NCBI GenBank assembly: GCA_019057375.1
Contig: DXJF01000047.1
Coordinates: forward strand, 1-32,740
Reading direction: 5' to 3'
DNA length: 32,740 nucleotides
Source of the DNA: Candidatus Heimdallarchaeota archaeon
GTDB taxonomy: Archaea > Asgardarchaeota > Heimdallarchaeia > Heimdallarchaeales > Heimdallarchaeaceae
Each line of letters starts with the position of its first letter. Position 1 is the first letter of the stretch. Below, piece after piece: positions 9,147 through 28,450 of this stretch. The position numbers were made by a program, and so were the translations under genes. The notes under the pieces were generated by a model. The model ran no database searches, had not been told where the DNA came from, and saw only the letters and a program-made list of their open reading frames with translations.

Positions 9147-9237
9147 GGATTTGAAAAAAGAAAAATATTTTTTGAATATTCTGCTGGTTAAGAGTTAAAA
9201 TTAAATACTTCTTATCTTTTGTTATTTGTAGAACACA

Positions 9238-9996: not shown

Positions 9997-10013
9997 TAGG
10001 GATAGGATTAATA

Positions 10014-10601: not shown

Positions 10602-10689
10602 GATATTGAACGATGAATTCCCGATTTTCTATCTAATATTAACATTGATTTCCTATCAGTATCAAAAAATGAATACTCCTTCCAATAAG

Positions 10690-10925
10690 GTCCAGGAGAA
10701 AATTATAAAGTGTAAGACACAAAAACAGCAGCTTAACTTTCTTAGAGATTATTTGTCTCTTCTGCATTACAGTGTCTTTTTAAAGCCCCTCCCTTCTTGG
10801 AAACGTCTCCTACCAAGAAGAAGACCTTCTAGACAAGGTTGTTAGTAGCTCCTGAGAAACCACCAATACCTAATCCAAGAAGATGGCAATGGTGAAATCA
10901 TCTTCTCATACAATCTTACACTAAT
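10690..10925. ncRNA. candidate structured non-coding RNA of unknown family
   Basis: 446-bp gap between convergent stop codons containing at least eight complementary stem pairs (listed in findings). I could not match a known family; G-U extensions slightly favour the minus strand. Confidence 0.35.
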
Positions 10926-11047
10926 AGTTTTTGATGTTCCTGTTATATCAGAATTTACAGAAACATGAATTTTGAGCTTCTTCAGTTTACTCCTAATAAT
11001 TGCAGTTCTTGTTTATAATAAAAAACAAAAATAAGAAAGAATTTTAG

Positions 11048-12589: not shown

Positions 12590-12697
12590 CAAATTTTAGA
12601 TAAATTTTAAACATTTTAAAGTTTACCTAGAAAATGAATTAATGAAGCTGAAATAGAAAAGAGATGCAAATACTTACTGTTTATACAAAATCTCATG

Positions 12698-12915
12698 AAA
12701 AAGTGCAAAATCTATAGTGATTGGATCTATTGCATTAATAACTTCATATCTAGTATGAGTACTACTTTGAGAATCTCCAAATCCCAGCAATTGAGCAAAA
12801 TTAACTTCTCTTCCAGTTCAGAAAGTACTGTCATCACTCCAAATTTGCTTTCTCCAGCTCAATAATAATACGTATCTGGAGTTAGTCTTGTAATATCCAC
12901 ATGATGACAATATCA
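12698..12915 (-). pseudogene. decayed fragment of a second purple-acid-phosphatase-like gene, paralogous to 11048-12589
   Basis: Minus strand reads *YCHHVDITRLTPDTYYY*AGESK / frameshift / WSDDSTF*TGREVNFAQLLGFGDSQSSTHTRYEVINAIDPITIDFALF. This is colinear with GYHHVVELTGLTPNTAYHLRVGNGKSWGTDLDIKTG...FFGIGDSR...SADFAIF in the intact neighbour. Confidence 0.8.
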
Positions 12916-12956
12916 ATGTTAAAAATAAAGAAACTCAAGAAGTGTGTGAATGAATG

Positions 12957-13124
12957 TTATTGTTGATTTCCCATTGTTGCTGAGGTTAATTTTCGTCTAA
13001 GCTTTCTATTGGAAATTCCTTTATTCAATTTTTGGATACCCCAGAAAATTAAACCAGATAAAAGTCCAAAGAAACCAATTACTATGAAAATACTAAATAT
13101 TGTTGGGATGAATATTGGAGCCAT
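12957..13124 (-). CDS. 55-aa single-pass membrane protein, below the ORF-track length cutoff
   Basis: MAPIFIPTIFSIFIVIGFFGLLSGLIFWGIQKLNKGISNRKLRRKLTSATMGNQQ*; AGGTG RBS 9 nt before the ATG; TM helix followed by a basic segment. Confidence 0.65.
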   Translation of the reverse strand: MAPIFIPTIFSIFIVIGFFGLLSGLIFWGIQKLNKGISNRKLRRKLTSATMGNQQ

Positions 13125-13192
13125 TGTATCTAACACCTACTCAAAGAAAATCTTATACATTTTTAAACTTTTATGTTGGAGAATTAAAGTCG

Positions 13193-13921
13193 TTAGTTTA
13201 GGATTGTCAAGCTATTAGATTCATCAATATGAACATCTAGTTGTATTTTATCTGATGATTCGAGTCTTAGCTCCCCTGTATTAGAAATACCTCTACATAA
13301 ATACACTTCAGATTTGTATGAGTGTTTTTTATTCATATTGATTGAGTTCGTATTAAACAAGGAAGTTATTTTCTCATAGTTTTCCTCCGTAACTAAATTA
13401 ACATATTCAAATATATATTCTGAAAGGATTCTAATGAATTCATTTTTTTGAATTTGGTTTCCAGTAGCTTCTTCTAAACATGTGGCTTTTAATTGTTCAA
13501 AAACTAGAGTATTTTCTTCTTTTAATTCAATATTAATTCCTATTCCCAAGAGTAAATATTCTGATTGTAAAGATACCAACTCGAGTAAAATTCCACCTAA
13601 TTTTCTGTTTTTGAAAACTAAGTCGTTTGGCCATTTTACTAAGATTTCAGTTCCGTATTTTTTCTTAATAGCTTGTTGAATAGCAAGAGCTGCAGCATAG
13701 TGCAAAAAACTAAATTGTCTGGGTTTCATTTTGGAAGATAATGGGAATGCAAAAGTTCCATAAAAACCTCCACTTGGTGAGAACCAGGCTGAATTCTGTC
13801 TTCCCCTCCCCTCTTCTTGTTGTTTAGCCACGACTAGAATTGGGTGATCTATATCATTCTTAAGATGCTCAATTATTGCATCCATTGTTGAAGATACTTT
13901 TTCATAATGAACAGTGTTCAT
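13193..13921 (-). CDS. birA: biotin--[acetyl-CoA-carboxylase] ligase without an N-terminal HTH
   Basis: SSTMD, AKQQ..GRGRQ..AWFSP.GG, VKWPNDL, KLGGIL, LGIGIN. Start uncertain (ATG 13921, GTG 13942 or TTG 13951). Confidence 0.92.
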   Translation of the reverse strand: MNTVHYEKVSSTMDAIIEHLKNDIDHPILVVAKQQEEGRGRQNSAWFSPSGGFYGTFAFPLSSKMKPRQFSFLHYAAALAIQQAIKKKYGTEILVKWPNDLVFKNRKLGGILLELVSLQSEYLLLGIGINIELKEENTLVFEQLKATCLEEATGNQIQKNEFIRILSEYIFEYVNLVTEENYEKITSLFNTNSINMNKKHSYKSEVYLCRGISNTGELRLESSDKIQLDVHIDESNSLTILN

Positions 13922-14037
13922 ATAACCTATTCTGTGTGTCACAAACCGCAACAGAATTGGTATGTTATAAAGCTTTTTTCATTATCTCGTCATAAAAGAA
14001 GATGTCGTTTTTATTCGACTCTCTATAAGTAATACTA
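13922..14037. promoter_or_regulatory. divergent promoter region between birA and the carboxyltransferase-megasynthase operon
   Basis: Short head-to-head gap; the minus strand has purine-rich GAAAAAAGC followed by TTTATAA (BRE/TATA-like, about 13965-13980). Confidence 0.45.
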
Positions 14038-15612
14038 ATGTATCTGAATCATAAGAATAGAGCTAGTGATAGAGAAAAAAAAATCTATTCTAAGCTCCAT
14101 GAGAAGAGAAAGAAAAGTTTGGAAGGAGGGGGAGAAAAGAAGGTAGAGAATCAACATAAGAAAGGTAAGCTTACAGCAAGAGAAAGAATTGAATTGCTTG
14201 TTGATGAGAACTCTTTTGTCGAATTGGATTCATTAGTTACACATCAATCTACAAAATTCAATCTTGAAAACAACAAACCATTAGGAGATGGAGTAGTAAC
14301 AGGTCATGCAACTATTGCTGAGAGACAAGTTTTCATTTACAGTCAAGATTTCACAGTTTTTGGGGGAAGTTTAGGGAGAGCTCAAGCAACAAAAATTTGC
14401 AAGTTAATGGAGCTAGCAATTAAAACTGGAAATCCAATACTTGGTATATTGGATTCAGGTGGAGCAAGAATTCAAGAAGGAGTTGCTTCATTAGCAGGTT
14501 ATGGTGATATCTTCTTTAGGAATATTCAAGCTTCTGGAGTGATCCCTCAGATTTCTATTATTCTAGGCCCATGTGCAGGAGGAGCGGTTTATTCGCCTGC
14601 TTTAACAGATTTTGTTTTAATGAATAAAGAAAATTCATTTATGTTTGTTACTGGTCCAGAAGTTGTAAAAGCTGTTACAGGGGAGGAAATATCTTTTTAC
14701 GATTTAGGTGGAAGTGAGGTCCATAGCAAGAAAACAGGTGTGAGTCATCTAGTTGGTGAAAGTGAAGAAGAAACTTTGGACCTAGCTAGAAAACTACTTT
14801 CTTATCTACCTTCAAACAATTTGAATGATCCTCCATTTGACCCAGAAGTAAGAGAAGAAAGTGAACAAACCTCGCTTCGCGAGCTAATACCAGATAAAGA
14901 GAATGAACCTTATGATATGAAAAGCATAATAGGAACAATTGTTGATTCTGATAGCCTTTTAGAATTGAATGAAGATTGGGCTAAAAACATCATAGTAGGC
15001 TTTGCTCGAATGCAAGGGTTTACTGTGGGGATTATTGCAAATCAACCTCTTTTCTTGGGAGGAGCAATTGATTATAATGCAGCAGATAAAGCTTCTCGAT
15101 TCATTCGTTTTTGTGATTCTTTCAATATTCCAATATTGACTTTTGTTGATGTTCCTGGTTTTCTTCCTGGTGTCAAACAAGAACATGAAGGAATAATCAG
15201 ACATGGTGCTAAGCTGCTCTATGCTTATTCAGAGGCAACCATTCCAAAGATTTCTATAATCGTACGAAAAGCATATGGGGGAGCTTACATAGTTATGAGT
15301 TCCAAGCACTTAGGAACAGACATTAATCTAGCATGGCCTTCAGCTCAGATAGCTGTTATGGGTGCAGAAGGGGCAGTTCGTATTCTATACAGAAACAGAC
15401 TAAAAGAAGAAGAACCTGAGAAAGTTCTTGAGGAATTCACCCATAAATTCAAAGAAGAATTCGCAAACCCCTACCAAGCTGCAGAATTAGGGTATATTGA
15501 CAAAGTAATTTTTCCTGAAGAAACGAGAAACGAAATCGTTGCTTCGTTACATTTGCTTCAAAATAAGAGAGAACAGTCTCCCAAAAGAAAACATGGAGTT
15601 TCTCCAGTTTAA
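14038..15612 (+). CDS. pccB: acyl-CoA (acetyl/propionyl-CoA) carboxylase carboxyltransferase subunit
   Basis: QHKKGKLTARERI, GDGVVTG, QDFTVFGGSLG, DSGGARIQEG, GPCAGGAVYSPALTD, TGPEVVK, DVPGFLPGVKQE..GIIRHGAKLLYAY, RKAYGGAY, KRKHG..PV. Confidence 0.93.
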   Translation: MYLNHKNRASDREKKIYSKLHEKRKKSLEGGGEKKVENQHKKGKLTARERIELLVDENSFVELDSLVTHQSTKFNLENNKPLGDGVVTGHATIAERQVFIYSQDFTVFGGSLGRAQATKICKLMELAIKTGNPILGILDSGGARIQEGVASLAGYGDIFFRNIQASGVIPQISIILGPCAGGAVYSPALTDFVLMNKENSFMFVTGPEVVKAVTGEEISFYDLGGSEVHSKKTGVSHLVGESEEETLDLARKLLSYLPSNNLNDPPFDPEVREESEQTSLRELIPDKENEPYDMKSIIGTIVDSDSLLELNEDWAKNIIVGFARMQGFTVGIIANQPLFLGGAIDYNAADKASRFIRFCDSFNIPILTFVDVPGFLPGVKQEHEGIIRHGAKLLYAYSEATIPKISIIVRKAYGGAYIVMSSKHLGTDINLAWPSAQIAVMGAEGAVRILYRNRLKEEEPEKVLEEFTHKFKEEFANPYQAAELGYIDKVIFPEETRNEIVASLHLLQNKREQSPKRKHGVSPV

Positions 15613-15622
15613 GGTGTTACAG

Positions 15623-18600
15623 ATGAAAACTAAGAAACAATTAGAAAAAGAACTTAGATTAAACGAAATAATCTGGGGTTATTCTCCAAAGGGAATTAGT
15701 AATCCCCAATTAGCTATTGAACTTTCATTGAATGGTGGAATTGGTTTAATCGATCTTGAAGGATTAGAAGAAAGTGTTTCGAAAGAAATAATTGAGACTT
15801 GTTCAAGTAAGATTCCTTCTGACAAACTATGGGGAGTTCGATTCCCCGATATAGAATCTTTATCTGTTCTGTCTGAAGTAGACTCAATACCTATTGGAAT
15901 TATAGCTTTTGAAATAGAACAAGAAGATTTAGTAAAACTAGTTTCAAAGCTTAAATGGAAAGTTGCTGAAGTTGTAAATTTAGATGAGGCTCAAGAAAGA
16001 ACAGACTGGGTAGATTTCTTTTTAGTAAAAGGGTTTGAATCAGGAGGGAAAATAAGTGATCAAACATCTTTTATTTTGATTCAAGAATTCAATAAAGCTG
16101 GATTTCCTTTTATTATTCAAGGAGGTTTTGGTGTCTACAACATAGTTACAGCTATAGTAGGGGGAGCACTAGGAGTAGTTCTAGAAGGACAACTTTTTCT
16201 TCTTCCTGAATGTCCCCTTAGTTCGTTGACCAAAGAATACCTCGAAAAGCTTGATGAGAACGATACATACATCGCAGGAGAAAGCTCTTCAAACAAATAC
16301 AGATTGATAGGTAAAATTGCTAATAATTCTATTCGAGAATTAAAGAAATTTGATAAAGAAAACTCTGATAAAGGAGAAGAAGGACTACTAGAATTTTTGA
16401 AACAACTCTCAAGTAAATCTCATTTCTTTAATTCAGAGGAAATGAAACATTCATTCTTGCCTTGTGATATAGGTTTAAGTTTTGCTCCCTTTATAAAAGA
16501 AATTTTCGATGATTTAAGATCATTTCTAACTGCAATTCAAGACATCATTCAAGACCAAATCAAAACAGTTTCGGCTAATTGGCCTTTTGAAGAAGAAAGC
16601 GAATTTGCAAAAAGTCTAGAAATTAAATTTCCTATCATTCAAGGTCCTATGGCCAATATTACAGATAAGACTGATTTTGCAATAAAAGTAGCAGAAGAAG
16701 GGGCATTGCCAGTTTTAGCTATGGGAGGACTATTAATAGAAGAAGCTGAAGAACTATTCGCAGAATTCAACTCGAAATTTCCTAAAAACCAGAATTATGC
16801 AGGAGGAATTATCGGTCTAGAGGTAATGAAAGAGAGACGAGAAGCTCATATATCTCTAATGGCTAAGAACAAAACTCCCATCTGTCTAATTGCTGCAGGA
16901 ACTATTCAACTAGCAACTAGAATTCAAAAAATGGGGATGAAAACTATCATTCATACTCCAGCTTTAAGCTTATTCAAAGAAGCTATAAAATATGGTCACA
17001 AACATGTTATTTTAGAAGGCTCTGAATGTGGGGGACACATAGGAATTTTTACATCTTTAACTCTCTGGGAATCAATTTTACAGTATCTCAGTAACAATGC
17101 AAATCAGATATCTGAAAAAATCAATATTGTATTTGCTGGTGGTATTGGAGATGAACTTGGAGCTGCTATGGTAGCTGGAATGGTTGGAAATCACCTAGAT
17201 CTGATAAATCCTGGGATTCAGATGGGGACAGCTTATCTTTTCACAGATGAGATTGTAAAAACAAAAGCTCTCACTTCATTATATCAAGAAAAACTTCTTG
17301 ATTCAAATATCACTAGAGTCATAGGTTCTACAGTTAATACACGTGCTCGTGTTATACCCTCTGAATTTGTATCTCAAACAATTGAAAATGAACGAATTTG
17401 GATTAAAGAAGGATTATCTATCAGAGAAAGAAAGAAACTCTACGAGAAAGATAATTTGGGAGCTCTCAGAATTGCTGCAAAAGCCGAGATTTGGAATGAA
17501 GATTATGTACCAGAAGGAGATTTAACACAATTTAACTTAGTTGATGAAAAAGACCATGTTTCTTTAGGATGTTTCATGGCAGGCGAAATTATCAGTTTGA
17601 AGCGCAATGTTGTTCAGATTAAAGATCTTCATTATGATATTGTAGTATCTGGAAAAGAACTATTCAGAAATACAAGAAATTCAATTGAAAGGATGTTAAC
17701 AAGAGATATAGTTAGTGATGTTCCAAAAATTCAAATTTCGGAATTATCATCAAAAAATAGAATCGCGATAGTTGGTTTAGGATGTATTTTTCCAGACTCT
17801 GCAAATATTAGTGAATACTGGGCTAATATAACTTCCAAAAAATATTCAATTACTGAGATTCCAGATTCAAGATGGGATAAAAACATCCATTTTGATGAAG
17901 ATAAAACAGCTCAAAATAAGAGCTATTCTAAAATAGGGGCTTTTGTAAAAGATTACAAGTTTAATTCTATCAATTATCGAATTCCACCTAAAATAGCAGA
18001 TAGTATGGATGAAGTTCAGAAATGGTCTCTTGACGCTGCAAAACAAGCTTTAGAAGATGCAGGTATCTCTACAGATGGAAAAAATAGACTTCCAATTGCA
18101 GTAATTATTGGTAATGCTTTAGGTGGGGAAAATCAAAGAACAACTAACAAAGGATTATTTGTTCCTGAATTCCTTTTTGAGCTAGAAAATAATGCGGTTT
18201 TCAAATCACTTGGTGAAGAAGAACAGAATTCTCTCTTACAAAATCTAAAAGAAAATTATGATGGGAAATATCCTTCAATTACTGAAGATTCAATGCCTGG
18301 AGAATTGTCCAATATTATATCCGGTCGTATTGCTAACGTGTTTAATCTTACAGGTAAGTCTATGACTACTGATGCAGCTTGTGCTTCAAGTATAGCTGCT
18401 TTAGATACAGCTATTAAATCATTAACATCTGGTGATTTCGATACAGCTTTGGTAGGTGGTGCAGATAGATCTATGGATATTGCTTCTTACGTAAAATTTA
18501 GTAAGATTGGAGCTCTCTCTGCAAAAGGTTCTTGTCCCTTTGATGAAAGTGCTGATGGTTTTGTTATGGGAGAAGGTGCAGGATTTATGGTCTTGAAAAG

Positions 18601-21600
18601 ATTGGAGGATGCTATTAGAGCTGAAAATAAAATATATGCTGTCATCCCAGCTATTGGTTCTTCTTCAGATGGTAAAGGGAAAAGTATAACCGCTCCAAAT
18701 CCAGTGGGACAAAAACAAGCTATTTCAATGGCTCTCCGATTAGCAGATTTAACAATAGATGAAGTAGATTACATTGAAGCTCATGGCACATCAACTATTG
18801 TAGGTGACGCTGTAGAATTAAATGTTCTAAAAGAAGTTTTTCAGAACCGTAAAAATACAAAAAAACTTGCAGTAGGTTCCATAAAAAGTCAAATAGGTCA
18901 TCTAAAGGCTGCAGCTGGAATTGCATCTCTGATAAAAACAGCACTTACCATCTATAATAAGATATTACCACCTTCAATAAACGTTCAAACACTTAACCCA
19001 AAAATTGATTGGGATAAATCAAAGTTAAAAATAAATAAAGAACCCATTGATTGGGGTGTAGAAAAAGGAATTCTTCGAAGAGCTGGAGTATCTGCTTTCG
19101 GTTTTGGTGGAACTAATTATCACACAATATTGGAAGAATATTCGTCTGAAAAAGTAAAATATATATTTGACGAAAGCCTTCTTCTTGTTGCTGAAACAAT
19201 TGATCTGACTTCCCCAAGTGAAATATCTCTTCAAAGTATTAAACCAAAATTAAGCTTCATGTTTACTGGACAAGGTAGTCAATATTTAGGCATGGCTAAA
19301 CATCTTTATGAAAATTCTTCAATTGTAGCTCAAACTTTTGAGAAAGCAGAAAAAATCTGGTTCAGTTATTATAGTTATAGTCTGAAGGAAATAATATTTG
19401 GTTCGGAGAAACTCTCTACTGAAGCTAATAAGAAAAGATTAACTGATACTAAATTTACTCAACCTGCTTTATTCATTGTAGATATAGCTATAGCACGACT
19501 CCTATCTGAAGAAGGTATACTACCTGATATTGTTTCTGGACATAGTCTAGGAGAATATGTGGCATTAGTGATCGCGGGTTCATTATCTTTCGAAGATGGA
19601 TTAAGGGCGGTGATAGAGCGCGGTAGAGCGATGAGTAGAGCAGGAAATACAGTGCCTGGTGCTATGGCAGCTGTGCTTGCTCCAATTGATATAGTGAAAG
19701 AAATAGTGAATGAAGTTAAAAAAACCTACTTGACTATTGCAAATTATAATTCAAAATCTCAAACAGTTGTTTCAGGTGATATTGAGAGTGTTGAGGAAAT
19801 ATTAGAGATATCTAAGAAGAGAGGAGTAAAAGCAATAAGACTTAATGTATCAACAGCATTTCACTCTCAAATTGTTAAAAATGTAGAAGAAGAAATGGAA
19901 AAAGTACTATCCAAAATAGAATTTAAACGCCCTTCTATTCCTGTTTTTAGTAATGTAACAAGCCTTCCATATCCAAATGATCCTTCATTAATGAGGAATC
20001 TTTTGGTGGAACAAATAAGTTCATCTGTACGATGGGTTGATGAAGTAGAAAACATGTATAAGGCAGGAGCTAGATATTTCGTTGAAGTTGGACCTAAGAA
20101 AGCATTGTTCTCTTTTGCTAAAGATATTCTCAAAGATAAGAATGACATAAACGTTTTCAATACTCTAAGTGCAAAGGATGATGATATTAATAAAATCAAA
20201 GATACAGTAAACAAAATCATTCAAGCTGGTTATGAAAACGGAGGAATAGATTTCAGTACTTTGGATCAAAGCTTTGAGCATTCTATAGTGCAAAAAGAGA
20301 TTCCAGTTTTTACTTCCAAAAAATCAGATTTTGAATCATTCATTCAAAGAAACCCAAGTTTGCTAGAAAATTTCTTGAAAACAGGACATGATATCTATAC
20401 TACTTATTTGGGTAAGTCTGAAGCACCAACTGAAACCAGAAGTGTTTCTTCTTTGAGTGAAGAATTAATTGGTATTACTGGAGTTGGAATAGGATTACCA
20501 GGAAAGAGTCAAAATGTATTTGATGACGAGAACATAGATTTGATTCTCTCTGGGCACAATTTCATCGATACTGTTGAAGATGAAATAAAGCAACAAATTC
20601 TTGATAAAAACATCAATCGATTAATAAAATCTCCTGATGGTTCAGCATCATTTGAAGAAATAAAAGATTTAACTCAAGTAATCAGTTTAGCTGGACAAAT
20701 AGGCAAATTTGATCCTATCAATGATTTTGGTCTAAATGAGAAATTTTTACAATCTCTAGACATCACGTTTACTCTTGCTATTTGTGCAGGTTTGGAAGCT
20801 TTAACTGATGCAGGAATTCCTTTAGTAAAATCATCAATAACTACTACTACAGGAAAGATTCTTGAGGGAGAATGGGCTCTTCCAGAGGAGTTGCAGGAAG
20901 AAACAGGGATCGTCTTTGCTTCAGCTTTTCCAGGGTATGATAATCTCATTAAAGAAATTAGTGAATATCAAGAATCTGGGGAAGAAAGAAGTTTCAGTCG
21001 AAATTTTCTATTCAAGATTCTTTCACTGGGGCATGCACAGTTTGCACAAATGATTAAGGCAAAAGGACCAAACACTCAAATAAATGCTGCTTGTGCTTCT
21101 ACTACTCAGGCAATTGGTATTGCAGAGGATTGGATTAAAACAGGTAGATGCAACAGAGTTATAGTTATCGCTGCAGATGATGCAGCTAGTGAGAACTTAC
21201 TTCCTTGGATTGGTTCAGGATTTTTGGTGGCTGGAGGAGTTACAACAGAAGGGGAAATAGAAAAAGCTGCACTGCCTTTTGGTAAAAATAGACATGGTCT
21301 GATTATTGGATCAGCAGCTGCAGGATTAATAATTGAAAAAGAATCTGCTTATGAAAAAAGAGGAGTTAAACCTATTGTCGACTTAATAGGTTCCCAATTT
21401 ACAAACAGTGCTTTCCATGGTTCTAGACTTGATGTTAAGAACATAACAAAAGCATTTGAGACTTTTATTGATAAAGTTGAGAAGAATTACAATATCTCAA
21501 GAAAGGAAATTGCAGAAAATGGTATCTTTGTTTCACATGAAACTTATACGCCTGCTCGAGGAGGTAGTGCTGAAGCTGAAATTGAAGCTCTAAAATCAGT

Positions 21601-24600
21601 ATTTGGAACAGATGTATCCAAGCTGATTATCGTAAATACAAAAGGTTATACTGGTCATGCAATGGGAGCTGGCGTGGAGGAATGCGTGGCTATAAAATCT
21701 ATGGAAAGAGGTATCATTCCACCTATTGCAAATTACTCCCAAATTGATTCAGCATTTAATGGTTTAAGCTTTTCAAAAGGAGAAAATAGAAGAGCTAAAT
21801 ATGCAATAAGACTAGCTGCAGGTTTTGGTTCTCAGATTGCTTTTACAGCATTTAGATTGAATACTCATGATGACCGATATGATCTGAATTATCACGAGAA
21901 TTGGCTGAATCAGCTGAATGGGAGTCTTGATAGCACATTTCTAGATGGTAGAGTTTTAAAGATGAGAACAAAACCAAGAAAGATAGATTCAACAGATGAA
22001 AAGCTTGGAAGGAAACCTGTACTTCATTCGGTAGGATCTGGCAATGTTCTTTCTGAACTAACCAATATTATTTCAGAGATAACTGGATATGAGTCTAATT
22101 TAATTGAAGCTGATATGCATTTAGAAGAGGATTTAGGGATTGATACTGTTAAGCAAGCTGAGATTTTTGGTATTATTAGAGATAAATGGGATCTTGAATT
22201 GGATGAAACACTTAGTCTTGCTGAATTTACATCACCAAACAAAATAGTGTCATATATTCTAGAGAAACTCCCACCAGATCATAAAGAAGAAAGTTCCAAG
22301 AAAACAGCTGTTTCTCAATCTATTGATGATTCTAGTCTTAATATGCGAATAAGAGAAATTATTTCAGAAACAACTGGATACGAACCAGATTTAATTGAAT
22401 ATGATATGGATTTAGAAGAAGATTTGGGAATTGATACTATCAAGCAAGCTGAAATCTTTGGGGATATACGAGAAATATATGACCTTCCTCTGGATGAAAC
22501 TGTAAGTTTAGCAGAATTCAAATCAATTCAAGATATAGCTAATTACGTCTCCAAGCATGCTGTAACTGATAGTACGATCTCAAAAGATGTGAAATCTGAT
22601 TTAGAAAAGAAAAAGTCAGTACAGATGGAGAGGGACGTTAGAATAGATAAAATAATTGTATCACCAGCTAGCTTAAACAAAGAAAAAGCTGAGAAACTAG
22701 ATCTATCAAATCTATCCACTCTAGTAATTAACCTTGAATCATCTCGAACAAACTCAATATTAGAGGAATTCTCGAAGAAGAATTTACAATATCATGAATA
22801 CAGTATTTTTAATGATTCACTTTCTGAACTGAAGGATAAGGAATTTGATTCCTTTGTTATAATTCTGCCTGATGAAAAATCCAAACCTGGTTATGTTGAC
22901 CAAGAGATTTACAATAATATGTTTAAGCTATTTCAATCACTTGAATTAAATTCAAATCAAAGAATAATAGCTATTTCTTCAGAGAAATTCTTTGGATATG
23001 AGTTAGATGCAATACCTATATCTGGAGGAATTTCTGGATTTGTTAAAACTCTTGGATTAGAATTTGAAATGAAGGTTAAGCATTTATATTCATCAAATAA
23101 CAAAGAAATTCTTCAAGAATTAGAGTATTGGGATAATTTTAAAGAAATATCTTACCAAAAGGGAATTAGATACACACTCGTTTCCTCAGAAATTACTGAT
23201 GTTGTTACTAAAACATCGAAACTTGATCTTAAAAACGATGATTTGCTTTTGGTTACGGGAGGAGGAAGAGGAATCACATTCAAATGCATTGAAGCTTTAT
23301 GTACTATCGTCAAACCTAAAGTTGCAATTATGGGAATTGAGGATATTTCCCATTGTACTCCTGAATTGTTAGCTCTTTCTGAGGAAGAATTAAAACAACA
23401 TAGGGAAAAAATGATTGAAAATCTGAAAGCTACAGAAGAAAAAGTTACTCCTGTCATGATTGAAAGAAAATGGAATAATTTTATTTTTGGCTTGGAAGTT
23501 TCGAAAAATCTCCTGAGACTAGAGAAGTTGAAAATTGAAGCACAATATCGAAGAGTTGATGTGACCAACCAGAAGGAAGTAGAAAAAGCTTTAGATGAAA
23601 TTGAAAAGCAAATGGAATCAAAAGTAACCCACATTGTTCATGGAGCAGGATTAGAAGAATCTAAATCCTTCAAGAATAAAAAATTCGATTTTTCTAGATT
23701 GATAGTATCAGTTAAGGTTGAAGGAATCTGGAATATCCTAAATTCTCTAGATAAAAGTAAGTTAAAGAGAGTTGTTTGCTTCACATCTATAGCAGGAAGA
23801 TTTGGTAACAGAGGACAAATAGACTATTCCTTTGCTAATGGTTATCTATCTCGTTTATGTTGGATGCTCAATCAACAAGGAATCCCAGCAATAGCGTGCG
23901 ATTGGAGTGCTTGGGGTGGAGTAGGGATGGCAACAAGAGGCTCAATAATGCAAATTCTAACCTCTTTTGGAATAAATCCCATACCTTTAGAAACTGGGAC
24001 TGAAGTATTTGTAAAACTATTTCTAAACAAGATTGGAAAGGAAGTTGTTGTATCAAATGGATTAGGACCATTCGAAGAAGTGCATATTCTAGATCAGCAA
24101 ATCTCAAACAAAAATTACCCTATGATAAATAATCTAGAGTATATCGATTCAAAATTCAGAGTATATCATACTTTATCCACAAATTCAGATCTATACATGC
24201 TGGATCATCAAATACAGGATGTACCAATCTTCCCAGGTGTGATGGGTTTGGAAATGTTTTCCGAAGTATACCATCTGATATCAAACTCAAAACCATTCAT
24301 CTTGAAAGAAATTGAGTTTTCATCTGCATTAAAACTTCCGAAAAACATGCCTAAGGACATCTTTGTTGAATATGATACTTCAAAAGAAGAGATGATTCTC
24401 AAATCTGTCTTCATTCCGAAAAACGATGAAAAATTAAGAAGAGAAATTGAACATTTCAAGTTAAATATTGGAAGCAAAGCAAAGAAAAGAAGGAAAAGAA
24501 AATCAAGCTTTCAACCTGAAGATTCAGAATTACACTTGATGTCAAAAGAGGAAATTTACGAAGTATTCTTCCATGGAAAAAGTTTCCAAGTTTTGGATAA

Positions 24601-25696
24601 ATTACTAGATGTTTCAAATGAAACTGCACTTACATTAGTTAAGATTCCAAAGGATGATTTGTTCTCTGAAAGTAAAAGTAAAGTGTTGATTAATCCTCGC
24701 ACGATAGAAGCAGCTTTACAAACTGCAGGGTTATATGATATAATCGTTAATAACGAATCTTCGTTACCATCTAATATTGCACAACTTTCAATATATAGCA
24801 ATAAACAACCACATCATATTAAATCAAAATTCATTGAGAAGGACACAAATTATAGCTATTTTGATGTTGAAGTGTTTGATGAAAAAGGACATCTAATCGC
24901 CCTTTTAGAAGGCTTAGGGATGATTCATATACAGTTTTCTTTCACTGAAAATCTTGAAAGAATAAAACAACTTCAGATACTGAAAGAATACTGGCAAATC
25001 TCAACTTCTTTTTCAGACAATATGATGAAAATCATCCCAACAGCAGCTGTTTCTAATTATCTAGATACTAAACCTAAGGTATTGATGAGATATTTATCTT
25101 CAGAAGAAAAATCGTCATTTGAGAGAAAGAAAAATGAAAAAAGGAAAATTGAATATCTTTCTGGAGTGATTGCTGCTAAGAAACTTATCAAAGATGTCTA
25201 TAAAGATGCAAAGGCTATTCAGACAACTGAAATAAGAAAAACAACTAAAGGGCAACCCTACATTTATGATAGGAAGAAGAAAGAGAAGAGCAAGCTGAAT
25301 CTTTCAATAACTCACTCTGGTGATTTTGCAATTGCTGCAATAGGGGATAGTCCTATAGGTATTGATATCGAAAAGATTGAAGAAAGAAGTGAATCTTTCT
25401 ACAAAGAAGCTTTTACAGAGAAAGAGAGAAATCAGATTTCCTCAAATGCTGAGTTAGGGACAGTGTACTGGACAATTAAAGAAGCTATTACCAAAGCTAT
25501 AGGTGAAGGATTGAATCTCAGTTTACATGATATTGAAATATCTTCAGATGAGAAGAAATCTTCTTACAAAATAGATTTTTCATCCAAGATTGCAGAATCC
25601 TTACCATATGATCCCAACTCCTTTGAAATAACCAATAAGAAATTCCAAAACTATGCTCTAAGTTATTGTGAGATTAAGACAGATGATGGAAAATGA
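15623..25696 (+). CDS. ~3357-aa iterative type I PKS/FAS-like megasynthase: ER(degenerate)-ER-KS-AT-KS-ACP-ACP-KR-DH-PPTase
   Basis: Uninterrupted 10-kb ORF; domain motifs are given in the sub-features. ATG 15623 follows an AGGTG RBS (15612-15616) that overlaps the pccB stop; the track start at 15539 overlaps pccB and is unlikely. Confidence 0.93.
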   Translation: MKTKKQLEKELRLNEIIWGYSPKGISNPQLAIELSLNGGIGLIDLEGLEESVSKEIIETCSSKIPSDKLWGVRFPDIESLSVLSEVDSIPIGIIAFEIEQEDLVKLVSKLKWKVAEVVNLDEAQERTDWVDFFLVKGFESGGKISDQTSFILIQEFNKAGFPFIIQGGFGVYNIVTAIVGGALGVVLEGQLFLLPECPLSSLTKEYLEKLDENDTYIAGESSSNKYRLIGKIANNSIRELKKFDKENSDKGEEGLLEFLKQLSSKSHFFNSEEMKHSFLPCDIGLSFAPFIKEIFDDLRSFLTAIQDIIQDQIKTVSANWPFEEESEFAKSLEIKFPIIQGPMANITDKTDFAIKVAEEGALPVLAMGGLLIEEAEELFAEFNSKFPKNQNYAGGIIGLEVMKERREAHISLMAKNKTPICLIAAGTIQLATRIQKMGMKTIIHTPALSLFKEAIKYGHKHVILEGSECGGHIGIFTSLTLWESILQYLSNNANQISEKINIVFAGGIGDELGAAMVAGMVGNHLDLINPGIQMGTAYLFTDEIVKTKALTSLYQEKLLDSNITRVIGSTVNTRARVIPSEFVSQTIENERIWIKEGLSIRERKKLYEKDNLGALRIAAKAEIWNEDYVPEGDLTQFNLVDEKDHVSLGCFMAGEIISLKRNVVQIKDLHYDIVVSGKELFRNTRNSIERMLTRDIVSDVPKIQISELSSKNRIAIVGLGCIFPDSANISEYWANITSKKYSITEIPDSRWDKNIHFDEDKTAQNKSYSKIGAFVKDYKFNSINYRIPPKIADSMDEVQKWSLDAAKQALEDAGISTDGKNRLPIAVIIGNALGGENQRTTNKGLFVPEFLFELENNAVFKSLGEEEQNSLLQNLKENYDGKYPSITEDSMPGELSNIISGRIANVFNLTGKSMTTDAACASSIAALDTAIKSLTSGDFDTALVGGADRSMDIASYVKFSKIGALSAKGSCPFDESADGFVMGEGAGFMVLKRLEDAIRAENKIYAVIPAIGSSSDGKGKSITAPNPVGQKQAISMALRLADLTIDEVDYIEAHGTSTIVGDAVELNVLKEVFQNRKNTKKLAVGSIKSQIGHLKAAAGIASLIKTALTIYNKILPPSINVQTLNPKIDWDKSKLKINKEPIDWGVEKGILRRAGVSAFGFGGTNYHTILEEYSSEKVKYIFDESLLLVAETIDLTSPSEISLQSIKPKLSFMFTGQGSQYLGMAKHLYENSSIVAQTFEKAEKIWFSYYSYSLKEIIFGSEKLSTEANKKRLTDTKFTQPALFIVDIAIARLLSEEGILPDIVSGHSLGEYVALVIAGSLSFEDGLRAVIERGRAMSRAGNTVPGAMAAVLAPIDIVKEIVNEVKKTYLTIANYNSKSQTVVSGDIESVEEILEISKKRGVKAIRLNVSTAFHSQIVKNVEEEMEKVLSKIEFKRPSIPVFSNVTSLPYPNDPSLMRNLLVEQISSSVRWVDEVENMYKAGARYFVEVGPKKALFSFAKDILKDKNDINVFNTLSAKDDDINKIKDTVNKIIQAGYENGGIDFSTLDQSFEHSIVQKEIPVFTSKKSDFESFIQRNPSLLENFLKTGHDIYTTYLGKSEAPTETRSVSSLSEELIGITGVGIGLPGKSQNVFDDENIDLILSGHNFIDTVEDEIKQQILDKNINRLIKSPDGSASFEEIKDLTQVISLAGQIGKFDPINDFGLNEKFLQSLDITFTLAICAGLEALTDAGIPLVKSSITTTTGKILEGEWALPEELQEETGIVFASAFPGYDNLIKEISEYQESGEERSFSRNFLFKILSLGHAQFAQMIKAKGPNTQINAACASTTQAIGIAEDWIKTGRCNRVIVIAADDAASENLLPWIGSGFLVAGGVTTEGEIEKAALPFGKNRHGLIIGSAAAGLIIEKESAYEKRGVKPIVDLIGSQFTNSAFHGSRLDVKNITKAFETFIDKVEKNYNISRKEIAENGIFVSHETYTPARGGSAEAEIEALKSVFGTDVSKLIIVNTKGYTGHAMGAGVEECVAIKSMERGIIPPIANYSQIDSAFNGLSFSKGENRRAKYAIRLAAGFGSQIAFTAFRLNTHDDRYDLNYHENWLNQLNGSLDSTFLDGRVLKMRTKPRKIDSTDEKLGRKPVLHSVGSGNVLSELTNIISEITGYESNLIEADMHLEEDLGIDTVKQAEIFGIIRDKWDLELDETLSLAEFTSPNKIVSYILEKLPPDHKEESSKKTAVSQSIDDSSLNMRIREIISETTGYEPDLIEYDMDLEEDLGIDTIKQAEIFGDIREIYDLPLDETVSLAEFKSIQDIANYVSKHAVTDSTISKDVKSDLEKKKSVQMERDVRIDKIIVSPASLNKEKAEKLDLSNLSTLVINLESSRTNSILEEFSKKNLQYHEYSIFNDSLSELKDKEFDSFVIILPDEKSKPGYVDQEIYNNMFKLFQSLELNSNQRIIAISSEKFFGYELDAIPISGGISGFVKTLGLEFEMKVKHLYSSNNKEILQELEYWDNFKEISYQKGIRYTLVSSEITDVVTKTSKLDLKNDDLLLVTGGGRGITFKCIEALCTIVKPKVAIMGIEDISHCTPELLALSEEELKQHREKMIENLKATEEKVTPVMIERKWNNFIFGLEVSKNLLRLEKLKIEAQYRRVDVTNQKEVEKALDEIEKQMESKVTHIVHGAGLEESKSFKNKKFDFSRLIVSVKVEGIWNILNSLDKSKLKRVVCFTSIAGRFGNRGQIDYSFANGYLSRLCWMLNQQGIPAIACDWSAWGGVGMATRGSIMQILTSFGINPIPLETGTEVFVKLFLNKIGKEVVVSNGLGPFEEVHILDQQISNKNYPMINNLEYIDSKFRVYHTLSTNSDLYMLDHQIQDVPIFPGVMGLEMFSEVYHLISNSKPFILKEIEFSSALKLPKNMPKDIFVEYDTSKEEMILKSVFIPKNDEKLRREIEHFKLNIGSKAKKRRKRKSSFQPEDSELHLMSKEEIYEVFFHGKSFQVLDKLLDVSNETALTLVKIPKDDLFSESKSKVLINPRTIEAALQTAGLYDIIVNNESSLPSNIAQLSIYSNKQPHHIKSKFIEKDTNYSYFDVEVFDEKGHLIALLEGLGMIHIQFSFTENLERIKQLQILKEYWQISTSFSDNMMKIIPTAAVSNYLDTKPKVLMRYLSSEEKSSFERKKNEKRKIEYLSGVIAAKKLIKDVYKDAKAIQTTEIRKTTKGQPYIYDRKKKEKSKLNLSITHSGDFAIAAIGDSPIGIDIEKIEERSESFYKEAFTEKERNQISSNAELGTVYWTIKEAITKAIGEGLNLSLHDIEISSDEKKSSYKIDFSSKIAESLPYDPNSFEITNKKFQNYALSYCEIKTDDGK
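15665..17650 (+). other. two tandem FMN-dependent TIM-barrel (FabK/PfaD/nitronate-monooxygenase-like) enoyl-reductase-type domains
   Basis: Copy 1: GGIGLID, KGFESGGK, PFIIQGGFG, GVVLEGQLFL. Copy 2: PIIQGPMANI, ILEGSECGGHIG, IVFAGGIGD, QMGTAYLFTDE. Boundaries approximate. Confidence 0.75.
17755..19140 (+). other. ketosynthase domain KS1 with intact Cys-His-His triad
   Basis: RIAIVGLGCIFP, DAACASS (Cys codon 18380), EAHGTST, KSQIGHLKAAAG, AGVSAFGFGGTNYH. Confidence 0.95.
19255..20150 (+). other. acyltransferase domain, probably malonyl-CoA-preferring
   Basis: FTGQGSQYLGM, TQPAL, GHSLGEY, ERGRAM, IANYNS..QTVVSG, VSTAFHS, FVEVGP. Confidence 0.93.
20460..21860 (+). other. second, divergent ketosynthase-like domain KS2
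   Basis: IGITGVGIGLPG, NTQINAACASTTQAI (Cys codon 21092), SHETYT, NTKGYTGHAMGAG, AAGFGSQ. Confidence 0.8.
22050..22550 (+). other. two tandem acyl carrier protein domains with LGIDT in place of LGIDS
   Basis: IISEITGYESNLIEADMHLEEDLGIDTVKQAEIFG and IISETTGYEPDLIEYDMDLEEDLGIDTIKQAEIFG; ACT codons at 22145 and 22436. Confidence 0.88.
22640..24060 (+). other. ketoreductase (structural plus catalytic SDR subdomains)
   Basis: GISGFVKTLGLE, LVTGGGRGITF, YRRVDVT, VHGAGL, VKVEG, FTSIAGRFGNRGQIDYSFAN, CDWSAWGGVGM. Confidence 0.9.
24120..24930 (+). other. PKS-type double-hotdog dehydratase
   Basis: LDHQIQDVPIFPGVMGLE (His motif), FFHGKSFQV, PRTIEAALQ (Glu at the usual Asp position). Confidence 0.8.
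25020..25693 (+). other. C-terminal Sfp-like 4'-phosphopantetheinyl transferase domain
   Basis: YLSSEE...RKIEYLSGVIAAKKL, GQP, NLSITHSGDFAIA, PIGIDIEKI, FTEKE, WTIKEAITKAIGEGL. Confidence 0.88.
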
Positions 25697-26511
25697 AAAT
25701 TGAATATACGGATATAAATTTTCGAAATGAAACAATTAACGGAGTTCTCTATCTGCCTGAAAGCAACCATCCTGTACCCTTAGTTATTCATCTTAATGGA
25801 ATGCCGGGTCTTGAACCTGAAAAAGAAGGTGAAAGGTTTGCTCAGGAACTAAATAGCATTGGAATAGCTTATTATGCCTTTGACTATACAGGTGTTAGAA
25901 ATAGTACTGGTTTGTTTGAATATTATTACTCTCAAGAAAATATTAATACAATAATTTCATATCTTGTTCACCATCCAAAAATTCTTCCTACAAAAATTGC
26001 TCTACTCGGGGAAAGTTTTGGAGGTGCTATGGCTATATGCCATGCAGCTAGAGACAACAGAATACGGTGTTTAGCCATAAGATCTCCTGTTTATGATACT
26101 GAAAAAATTCCACAGTTAAAGATATTTGATGGATTGTCTCTGATGTGGAGATTAAATAAACAAATACGTTTTCCTAAAGTGAATTTAAAATCGTTCTTCG
26201 AAAATCAATCTTCACATTATAATCCAGATAAACTAGTAGAACAGCTTAACTGTCCTATACGAATGATTACTGGTACTAAAGACGAGATTTTAGACGCAGA
26301 GGAAATTGAAAAGTGGTTCAAAAAACTCCCAGTAAATCTGGATAAAGATCTCCAAATTATTGAGAATGCTGATCACAATTTTTCAAACAAAGTCCATTTC
26401 CAAAAAATGAAAAATTATGTAATTGATTTTTTCAAGCAGCGTTTGATTAATCAGGAGAATTCTCAAACTCCAGAAGCTTCTGATCTTGTTCAACAAAGGT
26501 ATTTTCCTTAA
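25693..26511 (+). CDS. alpha/beta-fold hydrolase (candidate thioesterase or acyltransferase for the megasynthase)
   Basis: FDYTG, GESFGG nucleophile elbow, TGTKDE acid, ADHNF His. The ATG overlaps the megasynthase TGA (ATGA, 25693-25696). Confidence 0.85.
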   Translation: MKIEYTDINFRNETINGVLYLPESNHPVPLVIHLNGMPGLEPEKEGERFAQELNSIGIAYYAFDYTGVRNSTGLFEYYYSQENINTIISYLVHHPKILPTKIALLGESFGGAMAICHAARDNRIRCLAIRSPVYDTEKIPQLKIFDGLSLMWRLNKQIRFPKVNLKSFFENQSSHYNPDKLVEQLNCPIRMITGTKDEILDAEEIEKWFKKLPVNLDKDLQIIENADHNFSNKVHFQKMKNYVIDFFKQRLINQENSQTPEASDLVQQRYFP

Positions 26512-26932
26512 CACATATCTTTTTCACTTTTCCCTTATTTGGAGAGAAAATCCTATTTCGCATTTTCATTGCTTCTAAAATCATAAGTTCTTGATTTTTA
26601 CCCACAATATCTCCTTCTTTTACAAGTATTTGCGCGATTTTACCAGGAATTGGTGCTTTAAGGCTAATGTTTTTCTTCTCTTGAGAACCGTTGTTTATGC
26701 TTCGTTTTGGAATGAAAGGTTTAATAGAGATATCTACATTTTCACCGTCTATTGTGAAATCTTTAGATGAAACTTCTACTGTAAAAGTGTGATTATTTAC
26801 TGTAACTTTGTAAACAGAATTAATCTCTTGATCAACTGATGCAGAGAATATTTCTCCATCTATACTCAAGTCTCCATTAGGGAGGATTTCAAATATATAC
26901 TCATGGTCTCGATAAGTTACTCTCTTTTTCAA
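26447..26932 (-). CDS. accB: biotin carboxyl carrier protein
   Basis: LKAPIPGKI..ILVKEGD.V, LEAMKM biotinylation motif, GKVKKI.V; TTG start. Confidence 0.92.
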   Translation of the reverse strand: MKKRVTYRDHEYIFEILPNGDLSIDGEIFSASVDQEINSVYKVTVNNHTFTVEVSSKDFTIDGENVDISIKPFIPKRSINNGSQEKKNISLKAPIPGKIAQILVKEGDIVGKNQELMILEAMKMRNRIFSPNKGKVKKICVKENTFVEQDQKLLEFENSPD

Positions 26933-26947
26933 AATTAAAACACCAGT

Positions 26948-28450
26948 TTATAGATAATTTCTTTGCTGCTCACGCTTGCTTTGCTCTCTCCATCGGTTAG
27001 TTCCGTTTGATGTTTCATTTAATTTGATTGGTGAGAATTGCTGCTTTGATTTTTGGATGCTTTGAGTTTTCAAAATTGCTGCGAGTTTAAGTTTCTCATA
27101 ATGTAACAAGATTTCTGTAATCTTATTTTTCTCCAGAAAATCGGTTGTTATAATTCTCTGCTGAAATTCGGATGATGCGATGATAGCATTATGAAGAGCG
27201 ATGTTTGTGGTAACTCCGGAAATCGATAGTTCGTTCAGTGCTATTCTTGATTTAGTTATCGTATCATTTCGATTGTTACCTTTAACAATAAGCTTACCAA
27301 TTAAAGAATCATAATTATTTGGGAAAACATAGTCAGGATAAATAAAAGTATCAAAACGAACTTCATTTCCTCCAGGGATATTTAACCCGGTAATTCTTCC
27401 TGATTGAGGATAAAAGGATTTCAGAGGATCCTCTGCATTGATCCTAAATTCTATAGCATGCCCATTAAACTTTATATCTCTCTGATTTATTGATAATTCC
27501 TTGTTACTTGCTATCTTCAGCTGTTCTACAACTAAGTCAATTCCTGTGATCATTTCAGTAACTGGGTGTTCAACTTGAATTCTTGGATTAATCTCATTGA
27601 AGAAAATATCTCCATCTTTCCATAGAAACTCTGCTGTTCCAGCATTTCTATAGTCAAGCTTTTCAGCAAGATTGCAAATCTTCTCACCCAAGCTATTTCT
27701 TTTACGAACAGAAAGAAAGGATGGAGCTTCTTCAATGATTTTTTGATAAGAACGTTGGATGGAACATTCCCTATCTCCAATATGAATTGATTTATGATGA
27801 TTATCAGCTAGAAATTGTATTTCAACATGTCTAGGAGATGAAATATATCTCTCAATAAACACTTTATTATTTCCAAAGAATTTGTCAGCAATTGTTTGAC
27901 AACCTAACAAGCTTATTTCGAGAGCCTCTGGATTTTCAACAATCTCCATCCCTCTTCCTCCTCCACCGAAAGCTGCTTTTATGATAATTGGATATCCAAT
28001 ATTTTCACCAATTTTTTCTGCCTCAGATAGTGACGATACATAACCATCAGAACCAGGAATTGTTGGAATACCAATTTCCTTTGCTATTCTCTTTGATTCA
28101 ACCTTGTCGCCTAAATTCCTTAGAACGGAAGGAGAAGGTCCTACAAATATCATTCCTTCCTTCTCAACCCTTTCAGCAAAATCTGGGTTTTCGCTAAGAA
28201 AACCATAACCTGGATGGATTGCATCTGAATCAGAAGTTAATGCAATTTCAATTATTTTTTCTATATTCAGATAAGTTTCTTGTACCGTACCTTTGCCAAG
28301 GCTATATGCTTCATTGGCCATTTTTACATGGAGAGAAGTAGAGTCTTCTTTAGAAAAAATAACTATGCTTTTTAGGTTTAGTAAACGGCATGCTCGTATT
28401 ATCCGAACAGCTATTTCTCCACGATTGGCTATAAGCACAGTACCAAGCAT
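26948..28450 (-). CDS. accC: biotin carboxylase (ATP-grasp)
   Basis: VLIANRGEIAVRIIRAC, IHPGYGFLSEN, KAAFGGGGRGM, RECSIQR, EINPRIQVEHPVTE, EFRINAEDP, YDSLIGKLIV. Confidence 0.95.
   Translation of the reverse strand: MLGTVLIANRGEIAVRIIRACRLLNLKSIVIFSKEDSTSLHVKMANEAYSLGKGTVQETYLNIEKIIEIALTSDSDAIHPGYGFLSENPDFAERVEKEGMIFVGPSPSVLRNLGDKVESKRIAKEIGIPTIPGSDGYVSSLSEAEKIGENIGYPIIIKAAFGGGGRGMEIVENPEALEISLLGCQTIADKFFGNNKVFIERYISSPRHVEIQFLADNHHKSIHIGDRECSIQRSYQKIIEEAPSFLSVRKRNSLGEKICNLAEKLDYRNAGTAEFLWKDGDIFFNEINPRIQVEHPVTEMITGIDLVVEQLKIASNKELSINQRDIKFNGHAIEFRINAEDPLKSFYPQSGRITGLNIPGGNEVRFDTFIYPDYVFPNNYDSLIGKLIVKGNNRNDTITKSRIALNELSISGVTTNIALHNAIIASSEFQQRIITTDFLEKNKITEILLHYEKLKLAAILKTQSIQKSKQQFSPIKLNETSNGTNRWREQSKREQQRNYL

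Follow-up and report, generated by a model that had tools for sequence, protein, structure and literature searches.

A block of six genes at positions 13,193 to 28,450 of contig DXJF01000047.1, from a metagenome-assembled genome (MAG) of a Candidatus Heimdallarchaeota archaeon (GCA_019057375.1), is probably a native, vertically inherited Asgard cluster that, judged from its sequence, encodes an iterative, fully reducing type I synthase of the fatty-acid type together with a dedicated supply of malonyl-CoA. The window analyzed here is the whole contig, 32,740 nucleotides long, in a 3.47-Mb MAG with an estimated completeness of 89% and contamination of 4.95%. The components named in a preliminary description of this DNA, a biotin-protein ligase (BirA), the carboxyltransferase (CT), biotin carboxyl carrier protein (BCCP) and biotin carboxylase (BC) of an acyl-CoA carboxylase (ACC), a megasynthase and a hydrolase, were all recovered by Pfam and NCBIfam matches, as follows.

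13193..13951, minus strand: birA, biotin-protein ligase, 252 residues (PF03099, 69 bits; TIGR00121, 129.7 bits against a cut-off of 83.1)
13952..14037, no strand: divergent intergenic region, 86 bp, AT-rich, with TATA-like motifs (direct reading of the sequence)
14038..15612, plus strand: acyl-CoA carboxylase CT of the PccB/AccB 12S type, 524 residues (PF01039, Carboxyl_trans, 625 bits)
15623..25696, plus strand: megasynthase, 3,357 residues in the NCBI gene call (Pfam and NCBIfam domains)
25693..26511, plus strand: alpha/beta hydrolase, 272 residues, with GESFG, Asp and His (Hydrolase_4 and Peptidase_S9 matches; direct reading)
26447..26932, minus strand: BCCP with an EAMKM motif (PF00364, 62 bits; motif by direct reading)
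26948..28450, minus strand: BC of the AccC type, 500 residues (PF00289, PF02786 and PF02785; NF006367, 593.8 bits against a cut-off of 597)

These genes fall into three groups resembling transcription units, namely birA, CT-megasynthase-hydrolase and BC-BCCP. The birA gene is divergent from the CT gene and keeps this position in all examined Asgard loci, and the intergenic region between the two is the presumed promoter region; a further TATA-like sequence, TTTATATA, was read directly about 25 nt upstream of the BC gene. The ATG of the hydrolase overlaps the megasynthase stop (ATGA), an arrangement of translational coupling. The PDB relatives of the hydrolase are esterases and lipases, and the place of its gene is the same in loci of the Loki and Heimdall types; it is a candidate chain-release enzyme, although this role is a guess.

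The megasynthase frame is open from 15539 to 25696 on the plus strand (3,385 residues), with an alternative ATG at 15593; the NCBI call of 3,357 residues makes the ATG at 15623, ten bases past the CT stop, the likely start. A frame that runs for about 3,380 codons without a break in DNA of 33% G+C content (GC), and is intact in about 60 related genomes, is far beyond chance. The frame contains enoyl reductase (ER), ketosynthase (KS), acyltransferase (AT), acyl carrier protein (ACP), ketoreductase (KR), dehydratase (DH) and phosphopantetheinyl transferase (PPTase) domains, listed below with residue numbers that refer to the 3,385-residue frame; NMO, FAS and PKS denote nitronate monooxygenase, fatty acid synthase and polyketide synthase.

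15656..16573 (about 40-345), plus strand: ER1, a degenerate NMO/FabK-like TIM barrel with GFESGGK and without the His of GGH (weak NMO match, 29 bits)
16574..17638 (346-700), plus strand: ER2, FabK-type enoyl reductase using flavin mononucleotide (FMN), GSECGGH (PF03060, 84 bits)
17756..19159 (740-1207), plus strand: KS1, type I PKS/PfaA-like, DAACASS, EAHGTST and GHLKAAAG (PF00109, PF02801)
19247..20167 (1237-1543), plus strand: AT, FabD-like malonyl transferase, GHSLGE and TAFHS (PF00698, 172 bits)
20576..22048 (1680-2170), plus strand: KS2, divergent second ketosynthase, NAACAST, SHETYTP and NTKGYTGH (FabF-related, E-26)
22055..22549, plus strand: two tandem ACPs, 22055-22258 and 22346-22549 (PF00550)
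22946..24088, plus strand: KR with its structural subdomain (PF08659, 96 bits, residues 2656-2793)
24116..24988, plus strand: DH, PKS-type double hotdog (PF21089, PF14765)
25046..25693 (3170-3385), plus strand: C-terminal Sfp-type (ACPS-type) PPTase, GIDIE and WTIKEA (PF22624 and PF01648, 62 bits)

The predicted catalytic motifs for a full reductive cycle are all intact. ER2 aligns to the FabK structures 7l00, 5gvh and 2z6i, including the EG-E-GGHIG motif, and the His of its GGH is invariant in all ER-bearing homologues, whereas the corresponding residue of ER1 varies among K, M, I, L, R, S, W, E and F; ER1 is therefore most readily seen as a non-catalytic paralogue. Scored against TIGR03151, ER2 reaches 100 bits where the cut-off is 453, which indicates a family-level resemblance to FabK and not an equivalog. 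The top NCBIfam match of KS1 is PfaA, whose model TIGR02813 gives 823 bits and has a cut-off of 1010.1, and the PDB matches of KS1 are PKS ketosynthases, while the AT scores 243.9 bits against the fabD family TIGR00128 (cut-off 260.9). The nearest PDB relatives of KS2 are FabF enzymes, at only E-26, and its Cys, His, Lys and His are invariant in an alignment of 12 archaeal and bacterial sequences. A PPTase is fused to the megasynthase in all archaeal homologues, and fused or adjacent in bacteria of the Type R family discussed below. The Pfam scan of the megasynthase found neither a FabA-type DH nor a thioesterase in cis.

The extender unit can be approached through the carboxylase, which is a complete biotin-dependent set of BC, BCCP and 12S-type CT, accompanied by a BirA that scores above the TIGR00121 cut-off. 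Over its full length the CT aligns with PccB-type structures, the top PDB matches reaching E-190, and its KAYGGAYIVM motif, common to all archaeal CTs linked to the cluster, places Ile at the position of D422 in Streptomyces coelicolor PccB. In the structural alignment the entries for the D422I, V, L and A mutants (1xnw, 3iav, 3ib9 and 3ibb) stand out, and the D422I entry, 1xnw, is the best S. coelicolor match. The meaning of D422I in PccB, reportedly set out by Diacovich and colleagues in 2004, is said to be that a hydrophobic residue at this site admits acetyl-CoA. By its sequence, the window CT has the hydrophobic residue expected of AccB-like forms that accept acetyl-CoA. Given both this Ile and the FabD-like AT, malonyl-CoA is the likely extender. 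Furthermore, in its own genome, as recovered at 89% completeness, the cluster CT is the only carboxyltransferase, the two megasynthase ACPs are the only carrier domains, and a KS1 query returned no other match. Some other species of the genus have a second CT gene, which lies upstream of the one in the cluster and is 73-78% identical to the window CT (G032:C9 61164-62714 and 64457-66031; G025:C74 10881-12422 and 14107-15681; G040:C149); in G032 the extra CT sits between BirA and the cluster CT, and the window has one copy.

The carrier domains present the one serious anomaly of the system. Both ACPs read LGIDT, with the Thr codons at 22145-22147 and 22436-22438, and across 121 archaeal and bacterial proteins of the family the corresponding site is Thr in 450 of 456 ACP copies and Ser in six, the Ser copies being in tandem with Thr copies. 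Because of this conservation, and because family members throughout have a PPTase either fused to the enzyme or next to it, the Thr is apparently used. A literature search on carriers with a conserved Thr found no paper on such chemistry.

An Asgard host, as preliminarily proposed, is borne out, and its family is Heimdallarchaeaceae: Ca. Heimdallarchaeum aukensis PM71, whose complete genome (CP084166.1) carries the cluster, belongs to the same family. The members of the 90% cluster of the megasynthase are named Heimdallarchaeota or Heimdallarchaeaceae, and the same megasynthase is on record from independent assemblies from several sources, on contigs of 32-55 kb. Contig continuity was judged by synteny with other assemblies of the genus. 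The preliminary description had allowed for a chimeric or bacterial contig; in fact, all but one or two of the 24 window genes are collinear in three other assemblies, G024, G021 and G032, whose megasynthases are 95%, 75% and 65% identical to that of the window (the G032 copy being on a 216-kb contig), and this collinearity of the cluster and both its flanks refutes chimerism. GC is uniform along the window, at 32-36%. In H. aukensis PM71 (7427-15613) the frame holding KS2 has only 2,729 residues, compared with 3,519 in a sister genome (G016), and the ER part is in a separate frame, which could be due to a frameshift or an error in sequencing, or could mean that the gene is split.

A survey of Asgard genomes for the same synteny, proposed in the preliminary description, shows that the BirA-CT-megasynthase-hydrolase-BCCP-BC block recurs in Heimdall- and Loki-type genomes. 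It is found on a 4.36-Mb contig of Lokiarchaeota, where proteasome, SBDS, exosome and L37ae genes surround it, on a 930-kb Heimdallarchaeota contig, on a 3.08 Mb contig and at loci labelled Promethearchaeota and Hodarchaeota, and some of the carrier genomes are closed. Full-length homologues of the megasynthase, for which residues 1560-2260 served as the search query, are 45-97% identical in Asgard genomes. By family, carriers number 25 of 30 genomes in the host's own family (f1), 1 of 1 in f2, 2 of 3 in f3, 9 of 12 in f4 and 10 of 12 in f7, with none of 22 in f5 and, in the Loki-type families, 3 of 14 in f19 and 10 of 135 in f20. Three genomes of the genus lack the megasynthase and still have the CT of the cluster, and these negatives are therefore probably assembly gaps. 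In the Loki-type families a CT is present in 13 of 13 genomes with the megasynthase versus 2 of 136 without it, so that the two are gained and lost together. The stricter proposition that the carboxylase occurs in Asgard archaea only with the megasynthase was rejected, since PccB-type CTs (53-59% identity) are found in megasynthase-free families.

Beyond the Asgard archaea, a relative of KS2 is present in no fewer than 572 species genomes, and the family is mostly bacterial. The bacterial carriers include Acidobacteriota, Actinomycetota, Chloroflexota, Myxococcota and others, and the other archaeal carriers include Thermoplasmatota and 'Methanobacteriota', whose enzymes are without an ER and have the PPTase fused. 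Carboxylase genes adjoin the megasynthase nearly family-wide, including in Thermoplasmatota and most bacteria. In many bacteria the gene immediately downstream of the megasynthase encodes a eukaryote-like ACC on one chain (BC-BCCP-ACC_central-CT), such as the 1,865-residue protein of a Calditrichota bacterium (L018 19118-24715), where an acyl-CoA dehydrogenase-like gene lies upstream, at the place of the ER in the Asgard enzyme.

The ancestry of the enzyme was examined with an unrooted IQ-TREE PMSF (posterior mean site frequency) tree of the KS1-AT-KS2 core (52 rows, 1,542 columns, ER columns excluded). All 20 ER-bearing Asgard rows lie on one side of a single branch (SH-aLRT 98), as a group that is sister (100) to an ER-less archaeal group and within which the Loki-type sequences are nested among the Heimdall-type ones. 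This position speaks against a recent import from bacteria. The initial characterization of the system as bacterial in style calls for qualification, in that the Asgard enzymes make up a single clade whose sister group is archaeal too, and that they are passed on within Asgard archaea. The topology also suggests one origin of the ER fusion and its later spread into Loki-type lineages. The megasynthase on a contig labelled Candidatus Hodarchaeota archaeon DZ1B.338 (L032) falls with full support inside the Loki/Promethearchaeota subclade, and the large same-class family f5 has none; either the MAG carries the wrong label or the gene was transferred.

The family to which this cluster belongs, as an Asgard variant, is catalogued but uncharacterised, and the cluster genes have been publicly available for years. 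A 'Type R' secondary lipid synthase, its product unknown, was catalogued by Shulse and Allen (2011; PLoS One 6:e20146, PMC3098273) as a pfaA homologue with the order KS-MAT-'CLF'-ACP(3-6)-KR (MAT, malonyl acyltransferase; CLF, chain length factor) and a downstream PPTase gene, with an ACC gene in the Koribacter cluster; the hosts given are Koribacter, Solibacter, Elusimicrobium and Roseiflexus, and archaea are unmentioned (PMC3098273). The order KS-AT-KS2, two ACPs and KR found here matches this pfaA-like definition, and a PPTase is encoded too, here in fused form. Compared with Type R, the megasynthase has two ACPs instead of three to six (Asgard relatives have two to five, bacterial relatives five to six), and the Asgard form is distinguished by its tandem ER-like/ER N-terminus, fused PPTase, three-subunit carboxylase, BirA and alpha/beta hydrolase, as well as by a 'CLF' (KS2) that keeps the catalytic Cys in every member aligned. 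The family of the Asgard enzyme takes in relatives from Acidobacteriota (Bryobacteraceae, Acidobacteriaceae) and Chloroflexota, which have 43-48% KS2 identity and the same Thr-containing ACP motif. The proteins of the named Type R strains were not returned by the homologue search, which covered proteins of up to 2,500 residues and gave only unnamed or MAG fragments.

Other known systems share parts of this architecture. With the Pfa synthases of polyunsaturated fatty acids (PUFA) the megasynthase has in common a PfaA-like KS1, tandem ACPs, a KR with a PKS-type DH, an ER of the FabK/PfaD type and an Sfp-type PPTase, but it is a single chain with Thr ACPs, and it lacks the KS-CLF pair of PfaC and a FabA-type DH/isomerase; TIGR02813 is matched below its cut-off, no FabA-family match was obtained and KS2 is not Cys-less. 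Enediyne PKSs (PKSE; SgcE, CalE8 and DynE8) are iterative enzymes with the order ACP-KR-DH-PPTase and release in trans by the product of a neighboring gene. The C-terminal order is the same here, whereas the ER1/ER2 in cis, the KS2, the dedicated ACC and an alpha/beta hydrolase as release candidate in place of a hotdog thioesterase are different, and no enediyne cassette gene was present in the window. The type I FASs of fungi and the Corynebacterium-Mycobacterium-Nocardia group are likewise self-contained de novo synthases with an FMN-dependent TIM-barrel ER and a C-terminal PPTase. In comparison, the domain order and families differ here, with KS and AT domains like those of PKS and Pfa enzymes and neither a malonyl/palmitoyl transferase nor a fungal-type DH. 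Finally, the carboxylase resembles the three-subunit ACCs of actinobacteria and archaea in its 12S/PccB-type CT, its complete BC and BCCP domains and its Ile specificity residue, but the Asgard genes are split around the megasynthase and co-inherited with it.

With respect to the prior record, a PKS was noted in a Heimdallarchaeota MAG in 2020 (PMC7472256), and GenBank has long listed a Lokiarchaeum homologue, KKK41857.1, with the label Pks15/1. A literature search on Asgard megasynthases and PKSs found no paper that describes this cluster, or an ACC-linked megasynthase as a source of fatty acids. The novelty initially claimed is reduced by these two records and by the cataloguing of the family in 2011.

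Taken together, the domains outline a pathway in which BirA would biotinylate the Lys of EAMKM in BCCP, BC, BCCP and CT would convert acetyl-CoA to malonyl-CoA, and the C-terminal PPTase would turn the two tandem carriers into their holo forms, apparently on Thr. The FabD-like AT would load malonyl and perhaps acetyl groups, KS1 and KS2 would share priming and elongation, and each beta-keto group would be reduced by the KR, the PKS-type DH and the FabK-type ER2, with ER1 as a dead structural paralogue. After several rounds, the coupled alpha/beta hydrolase may release or transfer a largely saturated acyl chain, and a route by way of a DegV/Dak2 kinase and PlsY to acyl-glycerol-phosphate is possible in this genome. 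The preliminary claim that the block contains every step to a released chain stands insofar as the domains cover the full cycle with motifs intact, and is weaker at three points, as it is drawn at the level of domains, the carriers have Thr and the role of the hydrolase is a guess.

Also relevant are the lipid genes elsewhere in the host genome. It has three PlsY genes (C65:102352-103062, C16:4109-4855 and C128:7981-8718), one of which has an alpha/beta hydrolase upstream and a DegV gene 1.8 kb downstream, and in H. aukensis (L029 3-578) PlsY is directly upstream of BirA-CT-megasynthase. There are 19 matches to the DegV/FakB family, several in tandem (C64:34060, C57:40204-43257, C14:14414 and 22837, C150, C115, C65:104911 and others). 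DegV is present in 70 of 82 other genomes of the class versus 0 of about 317 outside it; it is multi-copy in the megasynthase families, and Loki-type carriers of the cluster are without it. PlsY is universal in the families of the window's class that have the megasynthase, and adjacent DegV-PlsY pairs occur in f7. A full-length FakA was sought and set aside: only two short, stand-alone Dak2 (DhaL-like) proteins were found (C132:64431-65114, 227 residues; C99:15674-16315, 213 residues), with no Dak1/DhaK in the genome; these two could serve as kinases alongside the DegV proteins. No geranylgeranylglyceryl phosphate synthase of the PcrB type scored above cut-off in the 89% complete genome. On sequence grounds, this gene set fits the conversion of free fatty acid to acyl-phosphate and its use by PlsY, and fits the scavenging of exogenous fatty acids equally. 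PlsY and PlsC in Asgard archaea have been published (PMC6737245; PMC13400652), and PlsY accepts both glycerol-1-phosphate (G1P) and glycerol-3-phosphate (G3P; PMC13400652). A route to ester lipids in this genome is conceivable, and the full proposal that Heimdallarchaeia make fatty acids de novo on Thr-linked phosphopantetheine and pass them through DegV (FakB-like)/Dak2 and PlsY to glycerol phosphate is, as a whole, doubtful.

Several observations weigh against a native fatty-acid-type synthase. Thr occupies the canonical site of the phosphopantetheine-bearing Ser, a residue otherwise invariant in the motif (D/E)LGxDS, and we know of no demonstrated phosphopantetheinyl-threonine. Every NCBIfam equivalog cut-off for FAS or Pfa parts was missed; KS1, the DH and the ACP-KR-DH-PPTase order resemble PKS and PfaA more than FAS; occurrence across the phylum is patchy, at 61 of 400 genomes; and neither PlsX nor PlsC was found in the incomplete genome of the host. 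In addition, the sole published lipidome of a cultured Loki-type Asgard archaeon, a strain that may or may not carry the cluster, showed archaeal lipids only, as cited in PMC13400652, which also points out that this one Asgard lipidome may have missed ester lipids.

Some of these points would be accommodated if the enzyme made, in place of bulk membrane fatty acids, a specialised polyketide or 'secondary lipid', such as a long chain with hydroxy or keto groups or double bonds, a precursor of olefins or a lipid used in signalling, which we regard as a possible, if somewhat unlikely, alternative. The family is catalogued as a secondary lipid synthase (PMC3098273), the ketosynthases nearest to KS1 are those of PfaA and PKSs, two active KS domains with tandem ACPs recall PUFA synthases, and occurrence in Loki-type families is patchy. 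To judge by the named Type R hosts, the bacteria that carry the family also possess a separate FAS II. Set against this are the ER in cis with its invariant catalytic His, the lack of tailoring genes in the block and of a FabA-type isomerising DH, the status of the cluster as the only source of ACC and ACPs in the genome, and its near-universal presence in Heimdallarchaeaceae and two sister families beside universal PlsY and DegV. A supply of housekeeping chains outside the membrane, such as acyl groups for proteins and cofactors (octanoyl for lipoate) or donors for other acyltransferases, is improbable: it would sit well with the missing PlsC and PlsX, and to our knowledge archaea otherwise have no de novo source of medium-chain acyl groups, but making trace products with a 3,357-residue enzyme and its dedicated ACC would be expensive, and no gene related to lipoate or lipoproteins is in the block.

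The replacement of the canonical Ser by Thr in both ACPs could also mean that the carriers cannot be phosphopantetheinylated and that the megasynthase is an inactive relic. This is highly improbable given that Thr is kept in all but six of the family's ACP copies, with Ser at the same site in a few tandem copies, that a PPTase accompanies the enzyme throughout the family, and that some 60 Asgard genomes keep the roughly 10-kb frame unbroken and its catalytic residues invariant. As for bacterial contamination or an assembly chimera, the estimated MAG contamination and the largely bacterial membership of the family are the points in its favor; collinearity of the cluster and both flanks in three assemblies of the genus (one a 216-kb contig), the location of the block amid proteasome, exosome and ribosomal genes in Asgard chromosomes that are closed or nearly so, and the uniform GC leave it with next to no probability.

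The remainder of the window is in keeping with an archaeal chromosome. The archaeal markers noted at the outset are genuine (Mtd, 297 bits; Nre_N and Nre_C, 287 and 122 bits; Gtr1/RagA, 134 bits), and the flanking genes are archaeal, encoding an aIF-2B-family protein, Mtd, asparaginyl-tRNA synthetase, NreA and a Gtr1/RagA-like small GTPase; the last (31190-31777) adjoins NreA in a position conserved in the genus. A major facilitator superfamily transporter gene (7749-9146) is shared with G021 and missing at the syntenic site in G024 and G032, and is therefore a local indel within the genus. Two adjoining small open reading frames (5167-5694 and 5758-6294) without a Pfam match both match one single G032 frame, which points to a tandem duplication. 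Scans of 1-32740 for Rfam families (gathering score) and tRNAs returned nothing, including in the intergenic region 10690-10925.

Archaea are taught to lack ACP-dependent fatty-acid synthesis, and the origin of the bacterial-type membranes of eukaryotes is a problem in eukaryogenesis. Here, a concrete, conserved and apparently complete enzyme set is defined in the archaeal family nearest to the question of the eukaryote membrane, with candidate downstream genes (PlsY, an expanded DegV family and Dak2) in the same genomes, so that whether Asgard archaea make fatty acids is now directly testable with six genes. The link to the lipid divide is offered as a hypothesis, to which the PlsY and DegV genes add, no PlsC or PlsX having been found. 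The near-universal Thr of the carriers, in a family of this breadth, is a separate biochemical puzzle. If the Thr carriers and the PlsY route hold true, they would represent the first phosphopantetheinyl-threonine carrier chemistry and a native archaeal path to ester-linked lipids of the bacterial and eukaryote type, in the lineage closest to eukaryotes.

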